A stretch of DNA of 59,644 nt from a virus (taxonomy: Duplodnaviria > Caudoviricetes), in the IMG/VR virus record IMGVR_UViG_3300048592_000721, positions 1 through 59,644 of that record, one strand, 5' to 3'. Shown here piece by piece: positions 1 through 59,644 of the stretch. The stretch's first letter is position 1, and every line of letters starts with the position of its first letter. A model generated the notes under the pieces. That model searched no databases, was not told the DNA's origin, and saw nothing but the letters and a program-made list of their open reading frames with translations. Position numbers and translations under genes: made by a program.

Positions 1-128
1 CCAACGGTTTGCGTTACCCGCGCTGGGGCGGGCGGCGGAACGCCGTCCGACTGGGAAAATGCTGAGGCGTAGAAAAAGGCTTGGAATCGCGCCAGAATCC
101 CCAGCGTCGGGTGCACGCTTTGTTGGGT
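1..128 (-). repeat. attC: integron attC site (cassette 1); also the 127-bp terminal direct repeat
   Basis: Minus strand R'' ACCCAAC lies 11 nt after the stop of ORF 140-811 and R' is GTTGG(CA). The plus (bottom) strand folds GCGT-TACCCG-CGCTGGGG / CCCCAGCG-T-CGGGTG-C-ACGC with two extrahelical bases. Positions 1-127 are identical to 59518-59644. Confidence 0.88.
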
Positions 129-139
129 GCGGTTTTGGA

Positions 140-811
140 TTAATGAGTAAATGCAGAAACGATAAGCAATAGTAAGGGAATTGCTTTATCCGAAACTTCA
201 ACATCGTTTGAGTCGTCGCCTCTCTTGCCGCCGTGAAAAAGATTATTTCTTACAGAATATAAAACATTGACGATTTGTTTTGTTAGGGCAGAGATTTCAT
301 CCTTGCTAACCTCTTTGCCTCCAATATATCGCTCGTATATTTCGGTGTCAATCGGACTCCAGACAGGATTGTCACTTGAAACTGTACGGGCAACAACTAA
401 AACCCCATTCAATTTTTGCCCACGAACATCTTTCTCGATTGGATTACCACGCCATTTTGGAGTTCGATAAACAAAAAACTTTGTACTTTCATGTTTTATT
501 AGTTGTTCTCGTAATTCATCACTAAATTCATCAACGGCATTATCTATTTGCTCTCGCTCTGAAACCAAATCAACCTTCGGGATTAAGAATTTTCCTTCAT
601 GTTTAGTTTCTACCTTTCCGTCAGGTAAATATCGTAACCGAGCCGCTTTGCCGTTGTAGTCAGAAACAACTTGATAGATATTGTTGAAGGCTATCCAAAG
701 ATAGGAATATTTTTCAAATGGGTCGTATTCTTTTTGACTTGATTTAATATTTTTTGCTGATCGAAGCATTGAATATGCTACTTTTGTTTCAAAGGGGGAA
801 AATTGAATCAT
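140..811 (-). CDS. cassette-borne HEPN-like (RxxxxH) putative RNase
   Basis: C-terminal RNNLFH motif and N-terminal YLWIAFN helix. ATG at 811 has an AAAGGA RBS. AT-rich. Confidence 0.6.
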   Translation of the reverse strand: MIQFSPFETKVAYSMLRSAKNIKSSQKEYDPFEKYSYLWIAFNNIYQVVSDYNGKAARLRYLPDGKVETKHEGKFLIPKVDLVSEREQIDNAVDEFSDELREQLIKHESTKFFVYRTPKWRGNPIEKDVRGQKLNGVLVVARTVSSDNPVWSPIDTEIYERYIGGKEVSKDEISALTKQIVNVLYSVRNNLFHGGKRGDDSNDVEVSDKAIPLLLLIVSAFTH

Positions 812-840: not shown

Positions 841-872
841 CACCCAACTATGTATTTGGACGCCATATAACC
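841..872 (-). other. attI: attI-like primary recombination site
   Basis: Minus strand GCGTCCAAATACATAG|TTGGGTGC resembles attI1 (CGCCCTAAAACAAAG|TT). GTTGGGTGC is complementary to the R'' GCACCCAAC at the other end of cassette 1. No attC hairpin lies upstream. Confidence 0.6.
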
Positions 873-945
873 GCCGAATGACTTATCTGTCTCTTGGATT
901 CTAATGCCTAAATTAATTTAGGATTTTAGGCGGCGATAGATTAAT

Positions 946-1082
946 ATAAAAACCGCCACACGATTTGCGCAGGCGGTAGGATTTGTGCTATGATACTCCC
1001 TATCCGTTACGCGCCCAAATCGCGTAATTCAATTCCAAGCCTCACAGGATTGCAGTCCTGCGGGGCTGATTTTTTTATTATA
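946..1082. ncRNA. bidirectional sRNA/attenuator-like element, copy A
   Basis: Homologous to 17391-17534. Plus strand: TTGCGC..TG-TATGAT promoter, two hairpins, T-tract. Minus strand: TATAAT (1077-1082) and terminator ACCGCC/GGCGGT-TTTT. Confidence 0.6.
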
Positions 1083-1230
1083 GCCGGGAGGAGGGGGATT
1101 CGGAATAGTGTGAGGAATCACGCTTAAAGCGAGAAGCCTTGCAAACTGCAAGGCTTCAATCGTCAGTGCGTGAACTCTGGCTTCACGCTGCCGCTCGCGC
1201 GTCACTTGCCGCGAGCAAAAAATTAGTATG

Positions 1231-1301
1231 AGCGGGGAGCAGGGATCGAACCTGCGCCTACTCGTTGGAAACGAGTCGTCCTACCACTGGACGACCCCCG
1301 C
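1231..1301 (-). tRNA. tRNA-Gly (TCC)
   Basis: Cloverleaf GCGGGGG/TCCCCGC, anticodon arm ACTCG-TTTCCAA-CGAGT, T-arm GGTTCGATCCC. CCA is not encoded. Confidence 0.93.
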
Positions 1302-1351
1302 ATAAATCAATTATAGCACGGCTGTTCTGTTTTGGGTTTATAATTCCATGC

Positions 1352-2734
1352 ATGTTTAGAGGTTCTTTACCGTCAGACGTTCAAGCGATTCTTTGTTCGG
1401 CGGCGTCCACCTGGGGCGGGCGCGACATATACGTCGGGTGCAGCGGCAATTTCACCGTGGAACGCGCCCTGGCTTCACGCGGGGATTACACCCTGCACGG
1501 CAATGATGTGACGATCTACTCGTCCATTGCCGGGGCTTTTCTTGCTGGAGAAAAAGCCAGGCTCGAAATCAAAGACGCGCGTTTCGATTGGCTTTCGCCA
1601 TTTATCGAGACGGGAGAAGGTAAAGCCGCCACCATCTTTCTCGCTTCGCGCCTGGTGGATGGGATGACCTCGACGGGGGAAGTGAAAAACAATGCCTATT
1701 ATGAGCGCATGACCAAAGCCTATAAAGCGCAGTTCCAAAGCCTGCACGAAAAGACCTGCCAGAAGATTGTCAGTCTCAAAATGCGCTTGCAGTCCTACTT
1801 CAATGGCGACGTGATGAAGTTCGTGGACATGGTTCCGCAGGATGCGGCTTTTGTCGTTTACCCGCCTTTCTATGCTGGCGACTATACCAATATGTTCGCA
1901 AAACTCAACCTGATTTTCGATTGGGATGCGCCGACCTTTGGAGAACTCGACGACTCTGTACTTGAAACTCTTTACGAGAAAGTCACGTCAAAAAGCCGAT
2001 GGCTATTCGGGACCGACACGCCACAAGAGAAGTACGCCGACTTCCTGATTGGGCTGGCACGGACAACGAATAGGGGCTTGCCGATGTATCTATATTCCAA
2101 CTCAGGTGAAAAGAAGATCGTCCAGCCCGCGCAGAAAATCGAAGCGGTAAACAATGCGCGGCTTGGCGAGGGAATGCAGATTGGCGAAAAGCTGACAATC
2201 TCAAAGTTGACCTATTCGCAGTTTCAGGCGTTGCGCTCGCAATACATGAATGCCTTTATTCGTCCGGGGCAGGCTTCCGAGGCATACGCCGCTCTGGTGG
2301 ATGGATATATGATCGGTGTATTCGCAATCTCCACGTCGCCGAATCCTGCCCAGGCTTATTTCCCCGACCATATTTATCTGTTATCTGATTTTCCTGTGTC
2401 ACCGACAAGTTACCCGAAGCTGAGTAAACTTGTGTTGTATGCCGCGCTGAGTAAAGAGGCTGTAAAACTCTTTGAGCGCGTGGCGAGAAAACGCATTCGG
2501 TATCTCTACACCACTGCTTTCAGCAACAACTATGAAAGCATGAAATACCGAGGGCTATTCAAGTTGCACAACCGTACTGAGGCGGGACCAAGTGCAACTG
2601 ACCCTTACCAGAAACGATTCAAAATCAACTATGAAGCCGAAGCGGGAAAATGGACGCTCGCAGACGGGCTGAAACTGTGGAAACAAAAACACGGAGAATA
2701 CAGCCAATATGCAAACCAGAGTTATCAGGATTGA
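1352..2734 (+). CDS. putative antirestriction adenine methyltransferase-like protein with C-terminal GNAT/Mom-like region
   Basis: Start MFRGSLP at 1352 (the longer ORF overlaps the tRNA). GCSGNF motif-I-like and YPPFY motif-IV-like segments. Coupled to a ParB-like gene. Confidence 0.55.
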   Translation: MFRGSLPSDVQAILCSAASTWGGRDIYVGCSGNFTVERALASRGDYTLHGNDVTIYSSIAGAFLAGEKARLEIKDARFDWLSPFIETGEGKAATIFLASRLVDGMTSTGEVKNNAYYERMTKAYKAQFQSLHEKTCQKIVSLKMRLQSYFNGDVMKFVDMVPQDAAFVVYPPFYAGDYTNMFAKLNLIFDWDAPTFGELDDSVLETLYEKVTSKSRWLFGTDTPQEKYADFLIGLARTTNRGLPMYLYSNSGEKKIVQPAQKIEAVNNARLGEGMQIGEKLTISKLTYSQFQALRSQYMNAFIRPGQASEAYAALVDGYMIGVFAISTSPNPAQAYFPDHIYLLSDFPVSPTSYPKLSKLVLYAALSKEAVKLFERVARKRIRYLYTTAFSNNYESMKYRGLFKLHNRTEAGPSATDPYQKRFKINYEAEAGKWTLADGLKLWKQKHGEYSQYANQSYQD

Positions 2735-3647
2735 CCCAAGAAAACTGAAACTGCTCGAAGTAAATGCCCATTTCATGAGGCATGAGGTATTCATGCGCCT
2801 GACCGAGAATGTGAAGGAAGACAAGGCGCTTACCTCCGTGCCGTTCTGCGCGATTTACAAATACTTCACCGCCGATGATCCTATTCAGCGACTGGAAGAC
2901 GGGAGTCCTCTGTATGAGGTGCTTTCGGGAAATCATCGCGTGAAAGGGGCGATTGCCGCCGACCTGCCAGAGATAGACGTGATGATCACAGATGACCCGC
3001 TGACGCCTGATAAACGTGCGGCGATTCAACTTTCACACAATGCGCTGATTGGCGAGGATGACCCCGCGACCTTGAAAATGATTTACGGGGGAATTCAAGA
3101 CCTGACCATGCGCCTGTATTCTGGACTCGATGACAAGCGGCTCGATATGCTGGAAAAGGTTTCGCCTGGTGCGCTCGGTGAAGCAAACCTGCAATTCCAG
3201 CCTGTGTCTTTTATGTTCCTGCCCGACGAACTCGAACAAGTCAAAGAGGTTTGGGAAATTGCCAAAAAAGAAGCGGGATCCGCGAAACTACTCTGGCTGG
3301 CGCGGATGACTGAATACGACGCCGTCATGGATGCGCTCGAGGCGACATCCTCGTCCTACGGGGTAAAGAACGTGACCACTGCCTTGATTGCGATTCTCGA
3401 AATATTCACACGTCACATCACTGACCTGAGCGATGGTTATATCACCCAGGACGGCGAGGCAATGAAGGCAATCGGCGCGGTGCCGATTGCCTCGGTGACT
3501 GGGGTGAATATCCCCGCCAAGACTGCTGCGCTGCTCAAAAGAACTCTTGAACGCACGCGCTCGACCATGCCGAAAGGGAAGACAAACATAGACGCTTTAC
3601 ACCAACTTCTTGAACAGTTTTCGGATGGACTGAACGTTAAGAGTTGA
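2709..3647 (+). CDS. ParB/sulfiredoxin N-terminal domain protein
   Basis: YEVLSGNHRV motif and SHNALIGEDD. Typical position upstream of terminase. Confidence 0.75.
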   Translation: MQTRVIRIDPRKLKLLEVNAHFMRHEVFMRLTENVKEDKALTSVPFCAIYKYFTADDPIQRLEDGSPLYEVLSGNHRVKGAIAADLPEIDVMITDDPLTPDKRAAIQLSHNALIGEDDPATLKMIYGGIQDLTMRLYSGLDDKRLDMLEKVSPGALGEANLQFQPVSFMFLPDELEQVKEVWEIAKKEAGSAKLLWLARMTEYDAVMDALEATSSSYGVKNVTTALIAILEIFTRHITDLSDGYITQDGEAMKAIGAVPIASVTGVNIPAKTAALLKRTLERTRSTMPKGKTNIDALHQLLEQFSDGLNVKS

Positions 3648-3652
3648 ACATC

Positions 3653-4213
3653 ATGGCTCGCGGACTAACCAAAGAACGTGAACTGGAGATAGAGAAGCGT
3701 CGCGCCATCGTCGCCGCCAATGTGCTGGCGGGGCTGAATTACCGCGATATGGCGTCGCAATTGAATGTGTCTCTCGGCACGATTGCCAACGATGTGAAGA
3801 TCGTAGCCAGGCGATACCGTGAGGAGCAAATCAGCGAGTATGCCGACATCGTACAGTTGGAAATCCGCAGAATCGACACCGCTCTCAACGGGATTTGGGA
3901 CGGCGTCAAGGCTGGCGACAGAGATGCGGTTACTCTGCTGGTGATGCTCCAAAATCAGCGGGCGAAGTACCTTGCTTTATTCGATCCAGAATTAGACAGG
4001 CTTGGTTTGTTATTCCCGAACTTGAACAACGACCCTGACAAACAAATATCGGTAGAGGAAATACGGCGCAAACGGTGGGAACAGGTTTACCCACAATTGC
4101 AGGAAGTTATAGACGCGGAGGCTAAAGATGTCACAACCCCAAGCGAATTATCAGACGACAACTCCACAGGTGGTGAACCTGCTGGCGGAGTACCCGCAAA
4201 TTCCGCCGGATGA
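3653..4213 (+). CDS. HTH protein, probable terminase small subunit
   Basis: HTH GLNYRDMASQLNVSLGTIAND followed by an RAKYL helix. Located upstream of TerL. Confidence 0.55.
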   Translation: MARGLTKERELEIEKRRAIVAANVLAGLNYRDMASQLNVSLGTIANDVKIVARRYREEQISEYADIVQLEIRRIDTALNGIWDGVKAGDRDAVTLLVMLQNQRAKYLALFDPELDRLGLLFPNLNNDPDKQISVEEIRRKRWEQVYPQLQEVIDAEAKDVTTPSELSDDNSTGGEPAGGVPANSAG

Positions 4214-4364
4214 CGTGCGGGAGATTTTGGACGCACTGATGGTGGTTCGTAACTCGACGGGATGGGGGCGGATCGAGTTTATTATCCTTGCCAGTAACAT
4301 CGAGGATACGAATATCCACATCACCAAGAAACGGCGACCCAAGAAGGCGGAAACTGTAAAATAG
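4128..4364 (+). CDS. small DUF2292/YezD-like protein
   Basis: ILDALM..GWGRIEFII..N pattern resembles YezD (AL..I.YGSVEIVI..G). Immediately precedes the late leader/terminator. Confidence 0.4.
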   Translation: MSQPQANYQTTTPQVVNLLAEYPQIPPDDVREILDALMVVRNSTGWGRIEFIILASNIEDTNIHITKKRRPKKAETVK

Positions 4365-4386
4365 AACGCACGTTTCAAAAATCATG

Positions 4387-4475
4387 TATAATGCGGTTAC
4401 AACCTAGTTAGCCCGACTGATGTCGTCGAACACGGGGCAGATTCCAGCAATGGAATTTGCCCCGTGTATTTTTTT
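4387..4475 (+). promoter_or_regulatory. late-operon leader: -10 TATAAT, GCCYGACTGA-N7-GAA motif, intrinsic terminator
   Basis: TATAAT at 4387-4392, motif at 4411-4430, hairpin 4431-4466 followed by a T-tract. Same architecture at 17574-17679. Confidence 0.6.
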
Positions 4476-4495
4476 AACTTGATAAGGAAAAAGTC

Positions 4496-5017
4496 ATGAA
4501 ACAAATAAAAAAGTTCCTCCCTGTCCTTCTGGCTGTGATCGTGTTGGCAGCCGTGTCTGTTGTTCCTGCATTTGCTCAGGAGCCGACCCCGCCCGTTGTC
4601 GAAGTTATCGAAGTCGTTGATGTCGCGCCGCCCGTCTTTGATTGGTCGAAGATTTCCAACGCACTCGAAGACCTACTGACTGCGTTTCTGCTTCCCACCG
4701 TCGGGTTTGCCGCACGCTGGATGTGGGCGAAGGGCAATGTGGAATATTCCAAACTGACCGACTCGCAGAAAGCCAAATTCAGGGCGTATCTGGAGTCCGC
4801 CGTCTATGCTGCCGAACAGATGAAGTTGAAAGACGAAATTACCGACAAATTCGGCTATGTCATGAAAAAGGCAGAAGGATGGCTGGCGGCGAATCGTCTC
4901 AAAATTGATTTGACCGATGTCGCGCTTGAAGTCAAAGCTATCGTCGCTCACGAGTTCAACATGGGCAAGATTCTCGCCCCGAAATTGCCGAAGACGAATC
5001 CGCCCATCAACGGATAA
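4496..5017 (+). CDS. phage holin, LL-H-like, with N-terminal signal peptide
   Basis: Signal peptide (AFA|Q), TM segment, and AVYAAEQ..KF.YV..AE motif of LL-H holins. Confidence 0.55.
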   Translation: MKQIKKFLPVLLAVIVLAAVSVVPAFAQEPTPPVVEVIEVVDVAPPVFDWSKISNALEDLLTAFLLPTVGFAARWMWAKGNVEYSKLTDSQKAKFRAYLESAVYAAEQMKLKDEITDKFGYVMKKAEGWLAANRLKIDLTDVALEVKAIVAHEFNMGKILAPKLPKTNPPING

Positions 5018-5091: not shown

Positions 5092-5517
5092 ATGAAACCA
5101 GAAATCATCATTGCTTTAGCAACTGGAATACCGTCATTGCTTGCCGCATTGATTGCGCTTTTTGTTGCCATACGAAAGACGCCGACAGAGGTCAAAAAAA
5201 ACAAAGCCGAGTCTCACAAGGCAGATGCGGAAGCCGACAACCTGCATGCTCAGGTGGCGGATCGTTGGGCTGAGCATGTGATTGAACTACAGACTCAGGT
5301 TCGAAACCTTGATTTAGACGTGTCGCAGGTAAGACGCGAGAATGAGATGTATCGCATTGAACTTGCTGAGCGGGACCAGGTGATTGCAGACCTGAAAAAC
5401 TGGGCAGAACGCCTGCTTCGCCAACTGCGGAAACATGCGCCGACTGTAAAGCCAGAGGCATATATCAGTCATCATGCCGACATCATCGATGACGGTAGCG
5501 GCATGGCAGGCTGTTGA
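5092..5517 (+). CDS. membrane-anchored coiled-coil protein (lysis accessory?)
   Basis: N-terminal TM helix followed by a coiled coil. Confidence 0.55.
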   Translation: MKPEIIIALATGIPSLLAALIALFVAIRKTPTEVKKNKAESHKADAEADNLHAQVADRWAEHVIELQTQVRNLDLDVSQVRRENEMYRIELAERDQVIADLKNWAERLLRQLRKHAPTVKPEAYISHHADIIDDGSGMAGC

Positions 5518-6982
5518 TGTGCAACCCAAACTTTCCGATAATCTTGTATTCCTTGTTGAGCATTTATCTCTCCCTGACGCTGTCGGCGATCCCGATGCGA
5601 ACTGGGAGAATTTTCAATTATCGCACCTTAACAACCCGTCGCTTTTAGCGATTGAATCAAAGAGCCGTCAGGTTGGCTGGTCATGGCTGGCGGCGGCTGA
5701 GAGTGTGGCAAGCGCGATCAATAACCCGCGTGTGCCGCATATCTTTGTCTCGATCAACCAGGACGAGGCAGGCGAGAAAATCCGCTATGCCAAGGCGGTC
5801 ATCGAGGCGTTGGATGCGGATGTCAGACCCAAACTAAAAACGGACAACCGCTTTGAGTTGGAATTCTCGAACGGTTCGCGCTTGATCTCTCATCCGTGCC
5901 GACCTGTGCGCGGTAAGGCAATAGCCGTCATCTACCTGGATGAATTCGCGCACTATCCGAATGACCGTGAGATTTATCAGTCTGCATTGCCTGCGATTTC
6001 AAAAGGCGGCAAGATGCGGATTGGTTCGTCACCGCTCGGCGCGCGCGGAGTATTTTGGGAGATTTTCACAGAGGCATTCCGAAAATACCCTGGCTATGTG
6101 CGTGGAATGGTTCCGTGGTGGCTCACATCCTCAATGTGCAAGGATGTCAAAATGGCGACTATGGTCGCGCCATCCTTGCCGACAGAGGACAGGGTTTATG
6201 CCTTTGGCACGCCGCGCCTGACTCAAATCTTCGAGAATATGGTACTCGATGATTTCCAGCAGGAATACGAATGCGCCTGGCTCGATGAAGCCGTTTCATG
6301 GATTGATTGGGACTTGATCAAGCGCAACCAATCTTTAGCGGCTGACGAAAAACTCTGGTATCGCAAGGTTCGCGGCGTGGACGCGGCATTGCAGGCTGTG
6401 AACGAAGTCGCTCGAATGTGCATTGAGGCGCGGATCGAGCCGACACTCGTTGGCGGCATGGACATTGGGCGCAAGCATGACACGACTGAAATTATCCTGC
6501 TTGGCAAGAATTCACACCTTTCCAGCCTCCCCTATCGTTTACATGTGTCCCTCGACCGTGTCGAGTTCGAGAAACAGGAGGCTGTGGTAGGAAAAATTCT
6601 CGATGTGCTTCCAGTGACCAATTTCCTAATAGATGATTCTGGACTTGGGACGCAACTGGCAGAAAATATTTCAGGAAAGTACCCACAGGCGCAGGGCGTG
6701 ACCTTCACCAATGATCGCAAGGAACTTTGGGCGGTGGAAGCCAAACTCCGCTGTCAGAAGGGCGAAGCGCAAATCCCTTTGGAGCGCGACCTTGCCTATC
6801 AAATCCACAGTATTCGCCGCAAAGTGACGGGAGCAAATTCGAGCACGTTCGACACAGAAGGCAACGAAAAACATCACGCGGATATGTTTTGGGCGTGGGC
6901 GCTGGCTCTGTGGGCTGGCAAGAGTGACGGCGGCGCGAAAGTCCGCGTAACACCGAACCCGCTGGCACGCAGGCGCGGGTAA
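5474..6982 (+). CDS. terL: terminase large subunit
   Basis: KSRQVGWSW Walker A variant, YLDEFAH Walker B, GMDIG RNase-H motif and HHADMFWA. Start codon uncertain. Confidence 0.92.
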   Translation: MPTSSMTVAAWQAVDVQPKLSDNLVFLVEHLSLPDAVGDPDANWENFQLSHLNNPSLLAIESKSRQVGWSWLAAAESVASAINNPRVPHIFVSINQDEAGEKIRYAKAVIEALDADVRPKLKTDNRFELEFSNGSRLISHPCRPVRGKAIAVIYLDEFAHYPNDREIYQSALPAISKGGKMRIGSSPLGARGVFWEIFTEAFRKYPGYVRGMVPWWLTSSMCKDVKMATMVAPSLPTEDRVYAFGTPRLTQIFENMVLDDFQQEYECAWLDEAVSWIDWDLIKRNQSLAADEKLWYRKVRGVDAALQAVNEVARMCIEARIEPTLVGGMDIGRKHDTTEIILLGKNSHLSSLPYRLHVSLDRVEFEKQEAVVGKILDVLPVTNFLIDDSGLGTQLAENISGKYPQAQGVTFTNDRKELWAVEAKLRCQKGEAQIPLERDLAYQIHSIRRKVTGANSSTFDTEGNEKHHADMFWAWALALWAGKSDGGAKVRVTPNPLARRRG

Positions 6983-8588: not shown

Positions 8589-9701
8589 ATGCTGCTGGCG
8601 GACGAACTCGACGCGCTGGTTGATCCCATCGTAGCGCTTTACGAGCAGTACACCCAATCGGTCATCAATGACATTGCCCGCCGACTGGCTGGCATGGATA
8701 TGACGGCGACGGCGGCATGGCAGATGCAGCGCCTGACGGAATCGGGACTGGTGTACGAAAATGCCCTCGATGAACTTGCCAGAATTACAGGCAGGTCAAA
8801 GAGGGTTTTACTCGAAGCCTTTGAAAAGGCGGGCGTGCAATCCCTGGCTTTCGATGATGCGATTTACACAGAAGCGGGGTTGAATCCGCTGCCGCTGAAT
8901 TTATCTCCCGCGATGGCGCGAGCTTTGGCGGCAGGGCTGAATAAGACTCAGGGCATTATCTCCAACTTGACCATGACCACAGCTTCGAGCGGACAACAGG
9001 CGTTTATCTCTGCGGCTGACCTGGCTTATATGCAGGTGGCAAACGGAGCGATGAGTTATGACCAGGCTATCCGCGCTGGAATCAGGCAGGTGGCGCGGGA
9101 TGGGCTTTCTGTGATTTCCTATCCCACTGGACGAGCCGACCAATTGGATGTCGCCATGCGCCGCACGGTTCTGACGGGCGTGTCTCAGACGACTGGCGTC
9201 ATGCAGATCGAGCGTATGAACGAGATGGGCGTTGACTTGGTGCAAACGTCGGCTCACATTGGCGCGAGACCAGCACACCAGTTATGGCAGGGACGGATTT
9301 TTTCGCGCTCAGGCAGGGATGGACGGTATCCCGATTTTGTTGCTGAGACAGGCTACGGGACGGGACCGGGGCTGATGGGGTGGAATTGCCGACATTCGTT
9401 TTATCCCTTCTTCGATGGGAGTTCAAAGAACGCCTACAAAAAGCGTGAGTTGGAATCGTTTTCCAATGCAGTAAAAACTTATCAGGATAAGGAAATAAGC
9501 GTGTACGACGCAACTCAAATCCAGCGCGGAATCGAACGAAAGATTCGCGCTTGGAAAAGACAGGCATATGCTTTTGAATCGGCGGGGTTGGATAATGCCC
9601 GTGAGATAGCCAAAATCAGGCTGTATCAGGCTGAGATGCGGGCTTTCATCAAGCAGACGGGTTTGAGTAGGCAGTATGTGAGGGAGAGCGTTTGTAACTA
9701 A
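8589..9701 (+). CDS. phage minor capsid protein (Phage_min_cap2-like)
   Basis: SAHIGARPAH..WQG and GWNCRHSFYPF motifs. The last codons are supplied by the MITE end. Confidence 0.85.
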   Translation: MLLADELDALVDPIVALYEQYTQSVINDIARRLAGMDMTATAAWQMQRLTESGLVYENALDELARITGRSKRVLLEAFEKAGVQSLAFDDAIYTEAGLNPLPLNLSPAMARALAAGLNKTQGIISNLTMTTASSGQQAFISAADLAYMQVANGAMSYDQAIRAGIRQVARDGLSVISYPTGRADQLDVAMRRTVLTGVSQTTGVMQIERMNEMGVDLVQTSAHIGARPAHQLWQGRIFSRSGRDGRYPDFVAETGYGTGPGLMGWNCRHSFYPFFDGSSKNAYKKRELESFSNAVKTYQDKEISVYDATQIQRGIERKIRAWKRQAYAFESAGLDNAREIAKIRLYQAEMRAFIKQTGLSRQYVRESVCN

Positions 9702-10446: not shown

Positions 10447-10695
10447 TTATAAGTAATCATCTGGGACTTTCCCTTCTTCAACTACAACAAATGCACCCAA
10501 CTCTTTTGTGTCATCCCCAATTACCCAAGTCACTTGGATAACCTTACCTTCCATTGCTGTGCTAGCAGTCGATGAATCGTCCAAAATAACTACATGATCT
10601 CCCACTCTAGGAATAGGTATCTTTTTATAGTCAAACCTAAAAGATTTTGTTCCATTTGCGTTAATGATGTCAAAGGAAGTTGTTTTTTTTGTCAT
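10447..10695 (-). CDS. hypothetical protein
   Basis: 82-aa ORF coupled to the RM gene stop. Confidence 0.6.
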   Translation of the reverse strand: MTKKTTSFDIINANGTKSFRFDYKKIPIPRVGDHVVILDDSSTASTAMEGKVIQVTWVIGDDTKELGAFVVVEEGKVPDDYL

Positions 10696-13600
10696 TATTC
10701 TTTTCCTTCCACAATCTTGACTTCTTCCTCACTCAACCCATACAACTCATACACCAACTCATCAATAGCGGACTCCTCCTTGGACGTATCCGCCTGCGGA
10801 TTCCCTCTCTTCGCCGCCAATATTTGATCTACCAGTTTGACGAAAGGTTTTTGCTTCTCGTCAGAAATTCTCCGAACGGGAATCTCTGAAAGTGGCTTTT
10901 GGTATAGTTCGAGCATTTCCCCTTTTCTTTTACCCCGATTATAGAGCCAAAGAAAATAAAGCTTTGAATTCAACAATGCCAAAATATATTTAAGGGATAC
11001 AGACGTGTCTTTTTGTGTAATGAAATATACGTCTGCACTTGCATACCAAGGTATTTCGTTATATCCAAATGTGTTTGCATAACTTCTTTGTGGCGCAACG
11101 ATTTTTGGAGTAGTGAAATCAAACTCTTTTCTTGCAGATGAGAGAGCCCACCACTTTCCTAAATTCTTTGCTTTGCTCAACTCACCACTTTCGTAGTTTC
11201 TGGATTTTATGATCGACTCGAATCTTGACAGGTGTTTATAAACATTTTTATGCTTCGGGAGATCTGTGTCTGTGGTAACTTGAATAACCCATTTGGTGTT
11301 TCGGGTGCTCGTATAAAATTTTCCTATGTCAGAATTTTTGAACCAGGGTTTTATAATTACTTTGTCGTCAAGCCTTTTTGCGGTAGCGCTATCAATGACA
11401 TAAACACCCTCGCCGTTGGTTATCTGTAATTTTGGGTGCTTTTCAAAATGCTTTTTGGATATTTTATCTATGCCAGTAACTATACCTTGGCTTATGTGGC
11501 ACAAAATTCCGAGATCTCTATAATCAACTTGCATTTTCTGCAAAATATTTTGAGTGGTATTGCTGGCATCTACTCCATTTGAATTGCTTGTTCTTATATA
11601 GTTTTGCGTACCATCGTACAAGTCAGATTGCTTTACGCTTGAGTAATTAGTTTGGCTATCTGTTTTATTTAATATTGAGTGTAATTCATCGGGGGTTACA
11701 GTTCCTGTGCGATTAGTTGACACTATTTCGCAAAGACTATTTGCTTGTGGTTTTGTTAGCATTGTTATTAAGTTGTGTTGACCCGTTGCTGATTCGAATA
11801 CAGTTATTTCTCCTAAATTTACAAGTTTAGAAATAGAGACTCGACTCTTGAAGTCAGTTCTTAATTTCACAGCACTATCTGCAGTTGAATAGTAATTCGT
11901 TGTAATAAAAATAATTGTAGAATTTTTCCCACTCAAATCAATAGCCTTATGGAAAAAATAGTAAAAAAGATCCATTCTTTCATTGTTAAATCTTTTCCCT
12001 AAAGATGTTTCCTTCATTCTTCTAAAGAATTCTTTTTGCCCACCTTTATGACCAACATATGGCGGGTTTGCAATTAGTATGTCAAACCCATTTTTGTCAT
12101 GAAAGACTTCAGAGAAATAAATGTCAAAGTCGAATTGTGCATGTCCGTTTGTTATCTGTTCAATCAAACCATCAATCTTCTTTTTGTACTCCTGCTTTTT
12201 AGTAGGGTTAGTCACGTTGAAGTATAAAGGTTTCAAGGACTCAAGTTTGGCGAATAAATGTGCGTTGAACAAATTCTTTTCAACCCCAACTAATGAATTG
12301 CCACACACAACCTTATAGTCCAAGTTGGGCAAAGGCTTGATGTTTTGCGGGTCGTCTTCATCTACCACCAACGAGAGCCACAGGCGTAGTTTGGCAATTT
12401 CCACTGCGCCTGAGTCAATATCTACACCGTAGAGCGAGTTTTCAATACACTCGCGTTTGAAGTCATACACTGTCTTTTTGATTTTCGACCATGTTTTCAG
12501 CACATTCCGCGCACGTACGATCTCGCTCATCATGCCCACGGGGAACGCACCGCTGCCCACCGCAGGGTCACATACTTTGATGTTCGCCAGTTTTTCATCG
12601 ATCAATGCCGCGTTCTTGCGGATGGATTCAGCAATAATGGGGGAATAGGTTCCAGTTTCTTTGTTAGCGGCTTGGGCTTCGTGTTCGCGTAAATCTTCAC
12701 CGTGCTGAATCAGCAAAGCAATTGCTTCCTTTGTAGGCAACTCCGCTGGTTGAGTAGGACGAGTGCTCTTCTCGTCCGTATCGAAACCAGCAGTGGGGTT
12801 TAGCTCCGTGTGCAGGTAATTGATCAAGCTCTGCTGGCACATGTAATGCACGATCTCGCGCGGGGTGTAATACACGCCATACTGCTTGTTGAACTTGCTC
12901 TCTTCGCCCTTTTTGCCGCTCTCCAATGCCTTTAGGAATTCCCCATAATTGTCGGGGCGGATGGCGTTGAACTTTTCGTATGCCTTGCCGAGCAGTTCGG
13001 GGTCGATTGCCACTTCTTTTTCGAAAGGCTCATCTTCCTTCACCGTAAAGTTATAGCGGTCAAAGATGTCCAGAATGCCGTCGCCCGTATCGCCTTCATC
13101 GGTCTTATTTTTATTCGAGAACAACTCGTTGGAAAGCAGAATTTCCGTCTTGACCCAATCGTAATTATTCATGGGGTCGAACAGTCCGCCGTTCAGGAAG
13201 GGGATCTTGCAATCGAAGAGCCTGTAATAATGGTCATCGTGACTGCGATCCATGCGCAGGGCGTCATAAAACAGAGGTTCAAGGATGTCGTTGAAGAAGT
13301 TCTTGTAATCGCCGTGCTTCTTCTCGAACAGTTCGCGCAAAAAGTTCTTCGAGCCGTCGCCCCATGCCGCCTCGGTGGGTACGCCGAACCAGCCCTTCTT
13401 TTGCAGGTAATACAAAAAGACGATCTGCCCCAGCAGTTTCTTGGCAAGGTTCACCGTGTCGATGTCCTTACTCCTGAAATCGGCTTTTGTCTTCGCGTTT
13501 TTATCAATCGTCTTATCCAGTTCATCCTTTGTCCAAATGAACAACCCGCGATACTTCTCGAAGAACTCCTTCGTCACCTTCTCGATGTTGAAGGCTTCCT

Positions 13601-14159
13601 CCAATTGCGCCAGCGTCGGGTTCTTATCGGTATCTGCCATCATCGGCACGAACTGCTTCTGCGCCGTGTGACTCTTTTCATGACTCCCCACCAGGAATGA
13701 CCAGCGCCTCGCAGGTGTAAACTCATCTTTGACCTTGATCTGCCCCTCGTCATTCGCCTCCAGCTTAACCTCCAGCTTGACCAGCGAAAAACGCCAATCC
13801 TCCCCGTTGGGCGCTACAAAAGCCACCAGAGCGGCTTTCCTGTCTTTTCTGCTCAAATACTTCGCAATGAAATTTCTCTGCATGGTGCGGGCGCGGTCAA
13901 CCGACCCATCCCGCCTCAAATGGACGATCAACACATCGATCTCATCTTCGCCGTCCGAATACTTCGCCACCCGCTCGAACAGGCTCACATGCTTATCGAA
14001 GTCATCGAAAATCAAGTTACCCTTGTATGAAAAGGTCGCGGTCGCGCTAAAATCCGCCTCATTCAACAAAGACTTGATGAACTTGATATACCCAGCCTTA
14101 TCAAACTTCGACTGGAACGTATCCTTAATAAGATCGATTGCCCATTGATTTTTATTCAT
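10695..14159 (-). CDS. type IIG (Eco57I-like) restriction-modification enzyme with TaqI-C-like TRD
   Basis: LNGGLF, GVYYTP, DPAVGSGAF (motif I), ANPPY (motif IV) and C-terminal LALLNSKL/IDELVYELYGL. Confidence 0.88.
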   Translation of the reverse strand: MNKNQWAIDLIKDTFQSKFDKAGYIKFIKSLLNEADFSATATFSYKGNLIFDDFDKHVSLFERVAKYSDGEDEIDVLIVHLRRDGSVDRARTMQRNFIAKYLSRKDRKAALVAFVAPNGEDWRFSLVKLEVKLEANDEGQIKVKDEFTPARRWSFLVGSHEKSHTAQKQFVPMMADTDKNPTLAQLEEAFNIEKVTKEFFEKYRGLFIWTKDELDKTIDKNAKTKADFRSKDIDTVNLAKKLLGQIVFLYYLQKKGWFGVPTEAAWGDGSKNFLRELFEKKHGDYKNFFNDILEPLFYDALRMDRSHDDHYYRLFDCKIPFLNGGLFDPMNNYDWVKTEILLSNELFSNKNKTDEGDTGDGILDIFDRYNFTVKEDEPFEKEVAIDPELLGKAYEKFNAIRPDNYGEFLKALESGKKGEESKFNKQYGVYYTPREIVHYMCQQSLINYLHTELNPTAGFDTDEKSTRPTQPAELPTKEAIALLIQHGEDLREHEAQAANKETGTYSPIIAESIRKNAALIDEKLANIKVCDPAVGSGAFPVGMMSEIVRARNVLKTWSKIKKTVYDFKRECIENSLYGVDIDSGAVEIAKLRLWLSLVVDEDDPQNIKPLPNLDYKVVCGNSLVGVEKNLFNAHLFAKLESLKPLYFNVTNPTKKQEYKKKIDGLIEQITNGHAQFDFDIYFSEVFHDKNGFDILIANPPYVGHKGGQKEFFRRMKETSLGKRFNNERMDLFYYFFHKAIDLSGKNSTIIFITTNYYSTADSAVKLRTDFKSRVSISKLVNLGEITVFESATGQHNLITMLTKPQANSLCEIVSTNRTGTVTPDELHSILNKTDSQTNYSSVKQSDLYDGTQNYIRTSNSNGVDASNTTQNILQKMQVDYRDLGILCHISQGIVTGIDKISKKHFEKHPKLQITNGEGVYVIDSATAKRLDDKVIIKPWFKNSDIGKFYTSTRNTKWVIQVTTDTDLPKHKNVYKHLSRFESIIKSRNYESGELSKAKNLGKWWALSSARKEFDFTTPKIVAPQRSYANTFGYNEIPWYASADVYFITQKDTSVSLKYILALLNSKLYFLWLYNRGKRKGEMLELYQKPLSEIPVRRISDEKQKPFVKLVDQILAAKRGNPQADTSKEESAIDELVYELYGLSEEEVKIVEGKE

Positions 14160-14173
14160 AAAATTTTCCCTTG

Positions 14174-17100
14174 TTACTTCAAATACATACTCAAAATAAC
14201 TTCACGCTTCCCCGCTGACCTCGGGTTCTCGTCCACATAATGACTTCCCAACAGCCCTGCGGGGATCGTCATTCGCAGCAGTCCCAACACTTTCAGCGGA
14301 GATGTCCAATCTGAGTTATTGGCATTCAAAGCCTTAAGCGTGGCTTTAATGGTTTGTTTGGGTAAACCGCCCACTTTCAATTTCTCGATAATGGCTTGCA
14401 CAACGGCTTCCTGTTCCTCAGTTAATTGCTTGGTGTTTTTGAATACCGCCATAAGGATTCGCAAGACTTTCTCGTCACTGCCTCTGCCTTTGCGGGTTTG
14501 CAGTGTCATCGCTTCCTCGGTGGTCGCTGCAATGAAGGCATCCTTGTTCTTATCCAGCAGGTCGTAATACGCTTCCGAGACCTTTTCTCTCTTCTCGTCA
14601 GGCGTACACGCCAGCGTCTCCGCAGCTGCGATCAAATCAAGCTCCCATGCATCAAGATTATCGCCAGCGATAAAGAACTTCTGCACCTTCCCCTTGCGGA
14701 AATATGTAATTAGTGAATTTTGCAAGGATGGGTTGCTCTTGCCTGAACGCGCTTTTCTTGGCAGGTACTTAATCTTCTCGAACAAATCCTCATCGTTGTC
14801 GCGAATATCTTTAATGATTTTCAGGTACTTCAATTCGCTGGTTTCCGAACCATCTTCGCCAGTGATCGTTTTTTTGGAAATCAAACGGTCAAATAATTCA
14901 TGCGACCCAACAGGCTCTCCCTCGGTTAACAGCGCAGCGTCTCCGCCCAACAGCGAAAGGAAAGCGTTGATCTTTGCCTCTGCCGCTTCCTTGAGCCCGA
15001 TCTCGTTATTGGCTTGTGTAGTGGGAAAGAAGTTGAAGGTATAGATCGTGTCAAACTTCGTATCCACACGGTTGATACGTCCCACACGCTGCATCATGCG
15101 CGTCGGGTTCCACGGGATGTCGTAATTAATCACCACGTTGGAACGGTGCAGGTTCACGCCTTCCGAGAGAACTTCCGTGGCAACTAGAATGCGGTAATCA
15201 TTCCTCGGGTTCTTCGCCTTTGCATCGAAATTCTTGATGATGGTCTCGCGCACCCCTTCGCCTGACCCGCCCGAAAAACAAACTGCCTGATCTTTATGCG
15301 CCTTGTTGATATTCAGTGTCAGGTATTCCGCCGTCTCTTTTGATTCGGTGAACAGGATGATCTTGTTTTCCTTCAATAGCTTATTCTTTGAAAGCTGCTT
15401 CAACAGCGCCAATAGTTTGGGGTCGCGTTCCACGGTATCCCAAAGCTTTTTCACTTTCCTGAGAATGGCAAGGTCGCTCTTGAGGTAGGTCAGTAGTTCA
15501 GGGCGGAATTCACTGCTCTTGTACTTCTCCGCCTTGCCTTCTTCGATCAGGTGTTCCACTGCATCATCATTATCATTGTCGAGATATTCGAATATTTTAT
15601 AAGTATGCTTCTTGCTGGTGTAAACATTGCCCTTTTCAAACTCCCTGATGAATAGTTCATAAGAGTGAATGAACCTGCTAATGGAATTACGGAAGGCAAA
15701 GAAACTGCTTTCCAGCCGTTTGATGAGCAATATCTTCATGAACTTTCCCATGTTCCTTTGGGATTGTTCTTCCAGTTGGTCGAGCGGCTTTTTCAAATAC
15801 AGCAGGGGCGTGTAACGCGCATACTTGAATTCCTGTGAGAGCAATTCCATTGTCGCGTTGAAGACCTTGTCCTCTTCATCGTTCAATTCATAGTAAAGAG
15901 GCTCTGGCGCGGCAACATCTGGAAAGCGCAGTCCCTGTTTCTTCATGTCCTTGCCGAAGAAGTCAATAATCTCCGCGCGGGTACGGCGCACCATCAGGTA
16001 TTTCAAGACCTTTTCGCGAATTTCCTTTGAGTTTGAGCGTACCGTAGCGAGATAGTCTTCATAATCCGCCTGTCGATCCAGATCGGTCAGGTTCTTTGCC
16101 AGCCCCTTGAAGAAGTCTTCAATATCAGGCATATTGGGAATCGTGCTTTTCTTCGAGTTCTGGAAAAGCTTAATCTCGCTCAAAATGTCCCACGGTGAGT
16201 TGTTGTATGGTGTTGCAGTTACGAGAATAACGCGCTTGTTACGGCAAATTTCCGCCAGCATTTCATACGTGCGGTTGCCTTCATTGCGGAAGCGGTGCGC
16301 TTCATCAATGATGACGTTCTTGTATTTATCGGTGTCGCGTTCAAGCAAATCTTCCAGCTTACCGATGGATTCGAAATCCGCTGCAACTCTGAAATCAGAG
16401 AAAGCGTTCGGCCACGAACCAGGGTTATCTCTGTCCAAAAGCACAGGCGGCGCAATAACTAATGTCCTGCCATCCAACTGTCCAGCCAGCAACGTGGCAA
16501 TGTACGTCTTACCCAAACCTACCACATCAGAAATAAAGACACCGCCGTATTCTTCAACGATCTTCTTGGCGTTCAGAACTGCCTGTTCCTGATATTCAAG
16601 TCTCATGAAGTTTTCAGGCGTGTAATTGACAAATACCTCATCGGTCTGGTTTAGTTCGTCCTTGAAATATTCGTACAAGAGTTTCAAGTAAAGTTCGTAC
16701 GGGCTGATATCCTGACTAAGCCATGTTTTGGTTTCGATGGTTTCAATATATTTATCGCTGATGTCAACCGCGTCCAGCCATAGTTGCTCGAACTTATCAC
16801 GCGCGAATTTATGGTCTGCGGCATTCTTGAGTTCCACATTGAATTCAAGGTTTTCCACCAATCCAGATTGTGTCAGGTTGCTTGAACCAGTAATCACCCG
16901 CCCTGTATCTCTGTCACCTTCCTTGAAGGTCACAATATAAACCTTCGCGTGAATATTTTGCGAAGGATATACCTTTATTTCCAGTTTCCCGCTTTTGATC
17001 CATTCAATGAACTTTGCAACACCCAATTCAATGTTTTTGCTGTCCAGTGAATCTTCCAATTCCTTGGTCAGTTGATTAACAAATAAATCTTTGGCTTCCT

Positions 17101-17362: not shown

Positions 17363-17390
17363 TATCAACCTTTATTTTTTCTATAAACGC

Positions 17391-36930: not shown

Positions 36931-37232
36931 ACGCTTGGGGCGACCTGTGAGGTGTCTTTCTCTTTGAGTCTGGGTGTTATGTGTCTGACGCTTGGAAAAT
37001 CGCTTGTAGAGCATGATCTGAAAAAAAACTCTTGGGACTTCCTTAGACGAAAAAAAACATGCAGACACTTCATTCAGTGTGCTGCATGTGCTAGTTTCGG
37101 GCTTATCGGGGCTTGTGACGCGATTTTGGAATCAGGCTTCTTGGGACGCACGGAAATCAGGAATTTGGGTAACGATATGCAGAGTTGCAGAACGGGGTCT
37201 TAGAATCGCTTGTGACGCGCTTCGTGAAATTT
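36931..37232. repeat. composite non-coding repeat (three ~90-bp units)
   Basis: 37043-37232 is homologous to 57400-57590. 36931-36985 is homologous to 50516-50570. Confidence 0.8.
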
Positions 37233-48418: not shown

Positions 48419-48730
48419 TTATTCAAAAGCCTTCAAAAACTCAGACAATCTTGCTTCCAGCGACTTTAATTCTTCAAGATACAATTTTGAATTTACAACT
48501 TGTTCGGTATCGATTCTTATTGCGCGTTCTCCAAACAAAAGCGGAGTTTCATTTTTGGCGCTAATACGAGCGGCAAATGGAAGAACAAGACCGACGAGTT
48601 TATCGTTTGCTTCGCGGAATGTATTTGATATGCTTTTCGGGCGTTTTGCGCTGAATGCGGTTGCTGTGATTTTTGTCTTGCCTTTTGCTACAAATATCAT
48701 ACCGAAGACATTGAAGTTTTCAAGTGCCAC
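48419..48730 (-). CDS. hypothetical protein
   Basis: GGAGG RBS before the GTG start. Confidence 0.45.
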   Translation of the reverse strand: MALENFNVFGMIFVAKGKTKITATAFSAKRPKSISNTFREANDKLVGLVLPFAARISAKNETPLLFGERAIRIDTEQVVNSKLYLEELKSLEARLSEFLKAFE

Positions 48731-48753
48731 TGGCGACCTCCAAAATTTTGAAA

Positions 48754-57593: not shown

Positions 57594-57692
57594 CGGGCGT
57601 GGATTCTGCTTGGGAGCAGGAAAAATCCGAAGCCAGAAAAATGCTTGAAAATGCCGCCGAATCCCCAGCGTCGGATGCACGCTTTATTAGGC
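57594..57692 (-). repeat. attC: truncated/degenerate attC (cassette 3)
   Basis: R'' mutated to GCCTAAT. CCCCAGCG-T-CGGATG-C-ACGC arm present. Partner arm and R' missing. Confidence 0.7.
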
Positions 57693-57723
57693 GCGGTTTT
57701 ATGAAACTTTGACTCCATGCTTG

Positions 57724-58263
57724 TTAAAGTTTTACTTCTGATAAGTCATCCAACAATTTCTTTACTCGTACTCTTAATGATGGTTCAGGGTCATTATCTC
57801 TATAGGTGTCATTGAGCGTACAAATAGCCTTTATTTCGCCCAACCACACACCAAAACGATTAGGCGTTAACGGGTTAGTTGAAACGGCTGCTATATATTC
57901 AGCAATGAGACTATTAAGATAAACAGTTTGCTGTAAGTAATCATGCAGTTTTGATTGTATTTCTGGTTTAATAGAAAGTGATGATGTCGTCTCAAATAAA
58001 TGCCGTTCTACATTTGCTGTGCCAATGGGCGTTAAAGCCTTGTTTGGCAATTCCTTGCTGTCAATTCTGTCATGATTGTATCCGATGAGCCAAAGAGCAT
58101 GGAGGAGTTCTTGTTTTAATGCGTTTATCTGAGTCGTTTTCTCCCGCTTCTTATCGTTTTCTGCTTTTTGCCAATTCATGACTGAATTGAAAATAGCCGC
58201 TGAGAGACCGCCCGTAAGCGCACCCAACAACCACGGAAACCAAACAGGAAATGATTCAGGCAT
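57724..58263 (-). CDS. cassette 3 protein, N-terminal TM, unknown function
   Basis: ORF between attC sites with a GGAG RBS. Confidence 0.7.
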   Translation of the reverse strand: MPESFPVWFPWLLGALTGGLSAAIFNSVMNWQKAENDKKREKTTQINALKQELLHALWLIGYNHDRIDSKELPNKALTPIGTANVERHLFETTSSLSIKPEIQSKLHDYLQQTVYLNSLIAEYIAAVSTNPLTPNRFGVWLGEIKAICTLNDTYRDNDPEPSLRVRVKKLLDDLSEVKL

Positions 58264-58308
58264 AATTTTCTCCAGTCTAAAGGTTCAAAGTAATTTTTAT
58301 TTGAAAGC

Positions 58309-58438
58309 GCCTAACAGTTTGCGTTACCCGCGCTGGGGCGGACGGCGGAACGCCATCCAACTGGAAAAATGCTGAGGCGTAGAAAAAGGCTTGGAATCAC
58401 GCCAGAATCCCCAGCGTCGGGTGCACGCTTTGTTGGCA
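58309..58438 (-). repeat. attC: attC site (cassette 2)
   Basis: R'' TGCCAAC and R' GTTAGGC. Near-identical to 1-128. Confidence 0.9.
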
Positions 58439-58448
58439 CGCTCTAAGT

Positions 58449-58982
58449 TTACGGAGAACAACCTTTTGTATTGAAAAAACACAATATGTTTGGTTCTGAA
58501 TAAATTAAGCCAAGAGGAATTGACACAATTAATAAAAAGGTAATTAGACCAATTAGCCAATGAGATATTTTTATTGCCTTTTCTTTTACGATTGAACTTT
58601 TTTGTATTTCTTTAATGAATATTGAATGGTCTAGTATTGCTTGCATAAGAGCAAAGTTTTCAGAAGTATCATAATATTGTCTCTTGATTTCATCAAGGCT
58701 TGCACTAATTGGAAGTGAAAATTCACTGGGGGATAATCCTCTCAAGATTACTATAAAATTGATTATATAAAGAACTAGAACAATAGCAACAACTCCCCAA
58801 AAAATCATTCCTACCTTATCATATAAAGAAGATGCCATTACAGTTAAAGCGATTGAGATTATAATGCTTGAGTAATTCAATAAATTTTGTAGTTTCTCAT
58901 CACATAGGTTTGTAGCGTCATAAACCTTGTCAAATGCGAGGCGAAGACTTTCTAAAGCAATTTTTTTACTATTCTTTGTCAT
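58449..58982 (-). CDS. cassette 2 three-TM membrane protein
   Basis: Helix-TM-TM...TM topology loosely like Pycsar/SLATT-type effectors. AT-rich. Confidence 0.6.
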   Translation of the reverse strand: MTKNSKKIALESLRLAFDKVYDATNLCDEKLQNLLNYSSIIISIALTVMASSLYDKVGMIFWGVVAIVLVLYIINFIVILRGLSPSEFSLPISASLDEIKRQYYDTSENFALMQAILDHSIFIKEIQKSSIVKEKAIKISHWLIGLITFLLIVSIPLGLIYSEPNILCFFNTKGCSP

Positions 58983-59009
58983 ATATAAAAGTCCTTTGGA
59001 GGTAATAAA

Positions 59010-59174
59010 ATGTCAGATGAAGATAAAAAGAAAAGCGAAACCAAGAAAATAGAAGAAACAAAGAAAATAGATTTTTCAGTTCCGCCAGAAAAGCCAATAA
59101 TAAGAAGTAAAGACCCAGAACCAAAGCCAACAGAAACCCCAATAAAAGTTCATAAAAAAGATGATAGTGGGTAA
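59010..59174 (+). CDS. small Lys/Glu/Pro-rich protein in cassette 2
   Basis: GGAGGT RBS. MSDEDKKKSE...KKDDSG (54 aa). Confidence 0.45.
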   Translation: MSDEDKKKSETKKIEETKKIDFSVPPEKPIIRSKDPEPKPTETPIKVHKKDDSG

Positions 59175-59197
59175 ACAATAAAACAAGGAGAAATAAA

Positions 59198-59410
59198 ATG
59201 ACCGAATTAGATGAGTTTTTAGAAAAAAGCAAGAATGGTGGAATTGGAGTATACATCATGACTCCTTCAGGGCTTTTTAGCGGAAACGTAAAAGTCCATA
59301 ATACGGAAGTCTTGAGATTAGAACCTGCTTTTTTTCATACAAACAACGGAAACTCGAAAATAGAATTCCTAATCATATCTAAAGAAAGTGTTGTTGGATA
59401 TGGAAAATAA
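59198..59410 (+). CDS. small hypothetical protein in cassette 2
   Basis: AAGGAG RBS, followed by terminator 59459-59494. Confidence 0.55.
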   Translation: MTELDEFLEKSKNGGIGVYIMTPSGLFSGNVKVHNTEVLRLEPAFFHTNNGNSKIEFLIISKESVVGYGK

Positions 59411-59515
59411 GTATTTATCCTAAAATAAATTCTTGCTAAATAATTACTATGCTTTCCCAAAAGACAATCTGTTTTGGATTGTCTTTTTCTTTTTACGCTA
59501 ATTCTGCAAGGGGCG

Positions 59516-59644
59516 TGCCAACGGTTTGCGTTACCCGCGCTGGGGCGGGCGGCGGAACGCCGTCCGACTGGGAAAATGCTGAGGCGTAGAAAAAGGCTTG
59601 GAATCGCGCCAGAATCCCCAGCGTCGGGTGCACGCTTTGTTGGG
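59516..59644 (-). repeat. attC: attC copy at contig end (terminal overlap)
   Basis: 59518-59644 is identical to 1-127. R' GTTGGCA matches the R'' of cassette 2. Confidence 0.85.

Follow-up and report, generated by a model that had tools for sequence, protein, structure and literature searches.

An orphan attI-type site of an Anaerolineales integron family heads a cassette array in a phage genome and was probably captured en bloc with it

Introduction

How does an integron attachment site come to lie in a phage genome, and did the gene cassettes beside it enter there one at a time or arrive together with it? The question is raised by a locus near the left end of the window, that is, the whole 59,644-nt viral contig analysed here. 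An earlier note on this DNA had proposed that an attI site resembling attI1 was retained upstream of the first cassette, and had seen in it an active landing pad, as opposed to an attC cluster that was captured passively. To our knowledge, attI sites have rarely been identified beyond a handful of model integrons, for want of a general detector. Integrase-less cassette arrays are known as CALINs, a term that is said to stem from Cury et al. in 2016 (IntegronFinder), and preprints from 2024 reportedly describe defence genes in integron cassettes. The shuttling of cassettes between host integrons by phages has been proposed in the literature, and we know of no demonstration of it for Chloroflexota.

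The phage genome

The two ends of the contig share an exact terminal overlap of 127 nt (1-127 = 59518-59644), which points to a circular or terminally redundant sequence of ~59.5 kb; the contig being circular, the array that reaches its left end resumes at the right-hand side of the window (57594-59644). Pfam annotation (41 ORFs) identified large terminase, minor capsid and scaffold proteins, together with DnaB, ParB, RadC and several methylases. The sole tyrosine recombinase gene adjoins a probable attP (Table 1), and this attP stretch is duplicated at both ends of a related prophage integrated in the Chloroflexi MAG G406 (C67:26863-26941 and C67:79428-79518), from which it follows that the phage is temperate. 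Rfam models matched two tRNAs in the whole window and nothing else, and a search of GenBank phages with 849-2800 returned a single match, in an Erythrobacter phage, which spans 74 nt at the tRNA-Gly gene.

Two large genes, spanning 10695-17368 on the minus strand and thus opposite to the structural module, encode by Pfam an Eco57I/MmeI-type methyltransferase, the specificity domain of which is TaqI_C, and a PLD-nuclease/SNF2-type helicase; they look like a phage-borne restriction or defence-like pair. A ~205-nt element is also present twice, at 57383-57587 and 37026-37230, with no Rfam match. Its conservation in the phage relatives L161 and L189, described below, is 90-94% and exceeds that of the flanking genes; it terminates exactly at GTGAAAT, the insertion point of the block discussed below, and is a candidate phage non-coding RNA.

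Table 1. Coordinates of the features of the locus and of selected phage genes in the window.
Feature	Position	Strand	Remarks
attI-type site (simple site plus accessory region), no adjacent intI	849..946	minus	homology; no hairpin
R box / crossover, G|TTGGGT, cut 848/847	842..848	minus	first bases of cassette 1
Putative L box GGCGTCCAAAT, RYYYAA-like, inverted vs R box	853..863	minus	conservation
RYYYAA-like box CCGCCGAATGA	870..880	+	conserved as G(T)CC.AAT in 7/9 other heads
Perfect palindrome CCTAAATTAATTTAGG	907..922		core of the family's most conserved block, 901-931
Promoter-like site TTTATA, 16 nt, TAAAAT, facing cassettes	923..950	minus	consensus scan alone
Small-RNA-like element, host-type, in block	963..1095	+	Anaerolineales homologues
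Right block junction	1105..1126		backbone similarity resumes ~1112 (GAGGAATCACG...)
Cassette 1 ORF	140..811	minus	223 aa from ATG 811; hypothetical
attC1	1..130 (= 59518-59644 plus 128-130)	minus	profile E 2.7e-39
Cassette 2 body	58442..59517	minus	bounded by attC1 and attC2
Cassette 2 ORFs	58449-58982, 59010-59174, 59198-59410	-, +, +	
attC2, complete	58306..58441	minus	profile E 3e-41; R' crossover between 58315 and 58314
Cassette 3 ORF	57724..58263	minus	179 aa; hypothetical, no family
attC3, truncated	57594..57700	minus	R'', L'' and centre kept; ~24-nt L'-R' arm missing
Left block junction, TTGAAA	57588..57593		between backbone end GTGAAAT (57587) and attC3
tRNA-Gly(TCC)	1230-1301	minus	phage backbone, outside block; also in relative L161
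DAM-like phage methylase/GNAT gene	1349-2734		Pfam
Large terminase	5474-6982		Pfam
Minor capsid protein	8589-9701		Pfam; scaffold protein also present
Probable attP	~48,700-48,790		adjoins phage integrase 48790-49773
Tyrosine recombinase, sole one in window	48790-49773		beside phage attP

A three-cassette array

Read along the minus strand, the locus runs from the G|TT through cassette 1, attC1, cassette 2, attC2 and cassette 3 to attC3. A profile built from 19 attCs detected these three sites in the whole window and no others. Each cassette begins with a sequence complementary to the R'' box of its own attC (TTGGGTGC with GCACCCAA, TTGGCACGC with GCGTGCCAA, and TTAGGCGC with GCGCCTAA for cassettes 1, 2 and 3, respectively), which is the signature of real cassettes. 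With at least two attCs in the array, and no integron integrase in the 59.5-kb circular contig, the array falls within the definition of a CALIN.

The first two attCs are complete. In attC1, the R' crossover lies between 5 and 4 (= 59522/59521), and the site is 95% identical to attC2 and aligns with 15 attCs of an integron in the genome G003. For the bottom strand of attC2, an end-to-end fold is predicted (-30.2 kcal/mol, z -2.34), and the whole extent of cassette 2 on the minus strand is 59521..58315. The third site is partial: it matched the profile at positions 5-90 alone (E 3.9e-15) and has no end-to-end fold (z -0.29). Compared with the full-length sites of L182, L178 and L181, its similarity stops at ...CACGCCCG, and after this break the full-length relatives continue CCCCAGCGC.GGTAACGCAAACCG|TT.

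No Pfam, NCBIfam or convincing PADLOC family was found for the cassette proteins. That of cassette 1, likewise without a Pfam or NCBIfam family, has an RNNLFH (Rx4H) motif near its C-terminus, and HEPN is a weak lead for the protein. Its homologues (33-48% identity) occur in nine of 401 Anaerolineales genomes, and in the eight loci examined none stands beside attCs of the window's family, so that no donor array was found.

Among the 24 sequencing runs listed, the best contains 14% of the sampled words. Contigs from four runs cover attC1 (1-130), parts of cassette 1 (~394-784) and, thinly, 851-1000, and none of them bridges 848. Short wetland and soil metagenome contigs from three studies match parts of cassette 1 (394-784) with 0-2 differences at low depth, which indicates that this cassette circulates beyond the contig of the window.

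The site belongs to a family of Anaerolineales attI sites

When the 401 Anaerolineales genomes were searched at the DNA level with 849-1111, 12 of them showed matches, which split between two separate stretches of the query. Those to the first part, 849-948, all start right after an RYYYAAC cassette boundary. The conserved core of this part, CTAATGCCTA..TTAATTTRGG..TTTAGRC, was found at 11 loci in genome_contigs and in one further viral contig. With duplicates removed (L163=L182, L167=L184, L174=L178), nine array heads have the same orientation as the window (L175, L179, L181-L186 and L188), and four further heads (L177, L178, L180 and L187) have the same layout with the near-palindromic core on the other strand.

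Over 96 nt, 849-946 is 67-84% identical to the nine heads, with 84% for L179 and 67-79% for the other eight; in a BLAST comparison with L179, identity was 86.7% over 105 nt (E 1e-28). The window agrees with 48 of the 51 columns that are invariant in the nine other heads, its private changes at otherwise invariant positions being at 853, 867 and 890. All nine abut RYYYAAC at the same crossover, and the sequence on the cassette side differs from head to head, as expected of a cassette entry point. The attCs of the window's family follow five of the nine, and in two more the contig ends within ~140 nt.

The identity of these sites is anchored by four heads (L179, L184, L185 and L186), in which a divergent integron integrase gene lies 80-110 nt beyond the core pattern, its product scoring 439-453 bits with TIGR02249 (cut-off 265). 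These four are canonical attI sites. In the window, 849-946 borders directly on cassette 1 at the G|TT of a GTTRRRY core and is followed by three co-oriented cassettes, and homology and position together identify it as a true attI of an Anaerolineales (Chloroflexota) integron type. The proposal that an attI was retained here is thus upheld, and the site aligns with attI sites of Anaerolineales integrons, the earlier note having suggested an alignment with the attI region of the cognate host integron. Where the adjacent divergent intI would be expected, a tRNA-Gly(TCC) gene and a methylase/GNAT gene are found, as that note had seen, which makes the site an orphan attI.

Heads without an integrase are common in Anaerolineales, where integrase-less arrays often keep an attI. 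L181, L182 and L183 are orphan attI heads that adjoin housekeeping genes, with no intI within 2.5 kb, and the five orphan heads in the family carry different first cassettes at the same crossover. Not every integron of these bacteria has an attI of this family: the integrons of G003 and G002 (L128, L129) have a different attI with TATACAGC palindromes, and resemble the window in the first few post-crossover bases alone. A limited literature search on attI and integrons in Chloroflexi, and on CALINs and prophage integrons, turned up no description of this Anaerolineales attI family.

A second viral contig (L188, IMGVR_UViG_3300048565_000112:13486-25516), with an unrelated backbone, also carries an orphan attI of the family, 81% identical to that of the window over 109 nt, which heads a 938-aa STAND/NB-ARC-TPR ORF; neither an attC of the window's family nor an IntI was found within 6 kb of it.

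Anatomy of the site

The crossover reads ACCCAAC at 842-848 on the plus strand, or G(848)|T(847)T(846)GGGT on the minus strand, and confirms the cassette boundary proposed at 848/847. This is the sole RYYYAAC within 1-1500 on its strand, and it complements the R'' box of attC1, GCACCCAA. The 15 minus-strand bases upstream of the cut, rc(848..862), are CGTCCAAATACATAG, followed by |TTGGGTGC. We take the layout CGTCCAAATACATAG|TT to resemble the simple site of attI1; at the level of sequence, no homology to attI1 is recognisable. The resemblance drawn by the earlier note is thus a loose one of layout, and it is the Anaerolineales homologues that establish the attI identity.

That no attC hairpin precedes the first GTT proved correct. 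In 849-960 no hairpin beyond chance was found, with fold z-scores of -0.71 and -0.69 for the two strands against shuffles, compared with -2.34 for the end-to-end fold of attC2, a test that speaks to the absence of a hairpin and not to the mode of recombination. The attC profile likewise found no match in 849-1111.

Family alignment places conserved RYYYAA-like boxes at 855-861 (minus), 872-878 (plus) and 927-933 (minus), in addition to the R box. The block next to the crossover, GT.T.GGACG, is conserved in ten same-orientation heads (the window and nine others), and differs in three opposite-strand heads; the L box within it is a putative IntI binding site. Position 853, at which the window deviates from all nine other heads, lies 5 nt from the crossover, and the site could be impaired in consequence. 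The box at 870..880 makes an inverted pair with 926-935, and may also serve as an integrase site. The arrangement as a whole recalls, by analogy, the L/R pair and accessory integrase sites of attI1.

The perfect palindrome that had been pointed out at 907-922 is present. By itself it is not beyond chance: the window contains three perfect 16-nt palindromes against a mean of 0.86 in block shuffles, 59% of which have at least one. It gains meaning through its conservation in related sites. The palindromic block stands 52 nt from the crossover, a distance constant in the ten same-orientation heads including the window, and in three opposite-strand heads its place in the alignment is the same. For the promoter-like site that faces the cassettes, a consensus scan found one match against a mean of 1.7 in shuffles, which is not significant, and its -10 is not conserved in every member of the family; as the match is not above chance, we make no claim of a promoter.

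Integrase genes in the window and in potential hosts

With Anaerolineales IntI as query, tblastn found no match in the window at E 1e-3, and no remnant of an intI was found beside the attI. The tyrosine recombinase of the phage gives no TIGR02249 match, its best being XerA with 93.5 bits against a cut-off of 220. Lacking an intI, the locus is not a complete integron.

Outside the window, a scan of viral_contigs with an attC pattern gave 0 matches, and the attC core pattern occurs in 119 stretches of genome_contigs; among the 80 stretches listed, most belong to Anaerolineales or other Chloroflexota MAGs, with a few binned under other names. Integron integrases above the TIGR02249 cut-off were found in four of five attC-bearing genomes, and IntI in 72 of 201 sampled Anaerolineales genomes. 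The complete integron of G003 has 15 attCs that belong to the window's family and are oriented as in the window, followed by the attI region and a divergent intI. G406, the Chloroflexi MAG that hosts the related prophage L161, has both an IntI and an attC that is 95% identical to attC1.

Cassette-free relatives delimit an acquired block

A scan of viral_contigs with the methylase of the window found no relative. Two were found elsewhere: the prophage L161 in G406, with a methylase 91% identical to that of the window, and L189, a 4.7-kb metagenome contig whose methylase is 93% identical over the part present. L161 matches 57158-57587 and then 1225-4849, with ~115 nt between, and in L189 the matching stretches are 57248-57587 and 1126-2076, separated by 14 nt. 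To the left and right of the array, both relatives are collinear with the window, and they join ...GTGAAAT directly to GAGTAATTAAC...GAAGCCTTG, so that everything from 57587 to ~1112 is missing from both. From this gap we conclude that the window carries a block of ~3.04 kb, comprising 57588-59517 and 1-~1111, the attI included. It is situated in an intergenic region, between a conserved non-coding element and the terminator adjoining the phage tRNA-Gly.

At its left end, the block breaks attC3 ~24 nt before that site's own integrase crossover (R' box), and at its right end it extends ~165 nt past the attI into host-type DNA, with a possible GTGA microhomology at 1110-1113. Neither end is an IntI-type junction. 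Aberrant excision, of the kind by which specialised transduction captures host genes, was rejected as the source, the attP at ~48,700-48,790 being roughly 9 kb from the block.

The host-type DNA beyond the attI contains a small-RNA-like element at 963..1095, with a hairpin (956-972), an extended -10 (TGCTATGAT), two further hairpins and a T run. Four Anaerolineales genomes contain homologues of it (L162, L164, L165 and L166; 74-80%), and compensatory changes affect five of its 21 predicted pairs; no Rfam match was found in 800-1320. The attI and this element were never seen at one locus among the 401 Anaerolineales genomes, and no donor chromosome was found.

Origin of the array

We consider it probable, at roughly 0.7, that an orphan attI-headed CALIN was captured en bloc from a host chromosome by illegitimate recombination. 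It is the ends of the block, a cut attC3 on one side and host-type DNA past the attI on the other, that point to en bloc capture. The donor would be a chromosome already carrying an orphan attI-headed array, from which the attI, the three cassettes, the truncated attC3 and the small-RNA-like element would have been taken up in one piece. Parsimony and composition favour a gain over a loss as the direction of the event; with two relatives known, loss of the block from both L161 and L189 is a possible alternative. It is also possible, and compatible with en bloc capture, that the attI, once in the phage, received cassettes 1 and 2 at a later time.

If a host supplied the cognate IntI in trans, the captured site could still take in cassettes at its G|TT (848/847). 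Cassettes 1 and 2 would then be excisable or swappable, and cassette 3 would be locked in because attC3 is truncated. The cassettes would presumably be transcribed from within 849-955, since a terminator-like hairpin (972-956) would shield them from transcription arriving from upstream.

The strongest competing explanation, unlikely as we judge it, is that of the earlier note: an active landing pad on which the phage itself built the array, the cassettes being inserted singly at 848/847 by a host IntI acting in trans. The nearly intact attI (48 of 51 invariant columns), the complete and foldable attC1 and attC2, and the different first cassettes that family heads, five orphans among them, carry at the same crossover would all suit such a site. 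So would the supply of integrase, with IntI frequent among genomes of the host order (72 of 201) and G406 having an IntI alongside its attC 95% identical to attC1. The integron of G406, however, has a different attI, with no match to 849-946 at E 0.001. Moreover, no variant of this phage with other cassettes at 848/847 was found, and both relatives are without the attI itself. The attC of the oldest cassette is truncated exactly at the edge of the block, which implies that events not involving the integrase brought in, or trimmed, at least the attI, cassette 3 and the host DNA next to them. A hybrid history, in which the attI and cassette 3 were captured first and cassettes 1 and 2 followed, fits all the data. 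As a choice between landing pad and passive capture, the earlier preference is nonetheless not borne out, given that the relatives lack attI and cassettes together and that the block ends are not those of an integrase.

An assembly artefact, in which reads of a host integron were mis-joined to the phage through repeats, appears quite improbable. The contig does end in attC1, a member of a repeat family that is plentiful in metagenomes (in other samples its summed depths reach the hundreds), and the left junction of the block abuts the 205-nt element that the phage has twice. Both phage/block junctions are internal to the contig, however, and the halves of the block flank a single point of the backbone that is contiguous in both relatives, so that two independent mis-joins would be needed there. 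The 127-nt overlap is an exact match and can be told apart from attC2, despite 95% identity, and the second viral contig, L188, also has an orphan attI of the same family. Closure of the contig through attC1 means that additional cassettes lying between identical attCs could have been collapsed.

IntI can use GWT-type secondary sites and the palindrome alone is within chance, but insertion at a chance GTT in phage DNA, with a coincidental likeness to attI, can practically be set aside, as 849-~1111 is not phage backbone, 849-946 is homologous to an IntI-linked attI (E 1e-28 to L179), and such an insertion would be expected to end, on the distal side, in a hybrid attC that is complete, where attC3 is without its whole L'-R' arm.

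Relation to known integron systems

The site shares several features with attI1 and Shewanella-type attI sites. It heads the array and meets the first cassette at the G|TT of GTTRRRY; it would be a double-stranded site without an attC-type hairpin; and it has an inverted RYYYAA-like box at the crossover, with further similar boxes beyond. Those sites lie directly upstream of a divergent intI, as the IntI-linked homologues of the window's site do. The window differs from attI1 in having no recognisable sequence homology, belonging to its own Anaerolineales/Chloroflexota family, and in the palindromic block, 31 nt long and conserved, that stands 52 nt from the crossover, and from the attI of chromosomal and mobile integrons in that there is no intI anywhere in the 59.5-kb genome. 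Chromosomal arrays of the L181-L183 kind share its attI family, its attC family and the lack of an intI, whereas they adjoin housekeeping genes and the window's copy is phage-borne and joined to the small-RNA-like element. Secondary-site insertions also place cassettes outside a complete integron; in the window, unlike in these, a homologous attI stands beside the crossover, and the distal attC is truncated and not hybrid.

Phage-borne integrase-less arrays, one with its own attI, have already been published: in that study, 17 CALINs are described in phages, and the CALIN of the Shewanella prophage M16-3 begins with its own attI, in a prophage that also has a complete integron with intI (PMC9892861, Front Microbiol 2023). 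The present array is likewise an integrase-less cassette array inside a phage genome. The window differs in its host phylum (Chloroflexota) and attI family, in that the phage is without any intI, unlike M16-3, and in that cassette-free relatives bound the block to within a few bases, with non-integrase ends (PMC9892861).

The locus is a well-documented yet ordinary case of a phage-borne attI-headed array. It offers a clean example of a temperate phage with both an integron cassette array and its docking site, and its analysis defines an attI family for Anaerolineales integrons. If orphan sites work with IntI in trans, phages could move cassettes from the integron of one host to that of another.

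A further and more speculative idea, to which we give rather little credence, is that attI heads of the family spread as portable units of ~100 nt, seeding satellite docking sites, in phages included. We leave it open because an orphan head (L183:2444-2545) and an IntI-linked one (L186:51-152) are 97% identical over 102 nt with unrelated flanks, and because the likeness of the examined orphan heads to IntI-linked sites stops within a few bases of the same GATTAA. Were it true, a phage could harvest cassettes, possibly including defence genes, from the integron of each host that it lysogenises, through that host's IntI in trans, and pass them on.

In L175 (G049:C1:2741428-2744478), an attI-like head of the family, the position of the first cassette holds a tyrosine recombinase gene in cassette orientation, the product of which is 32% identical to IntI.
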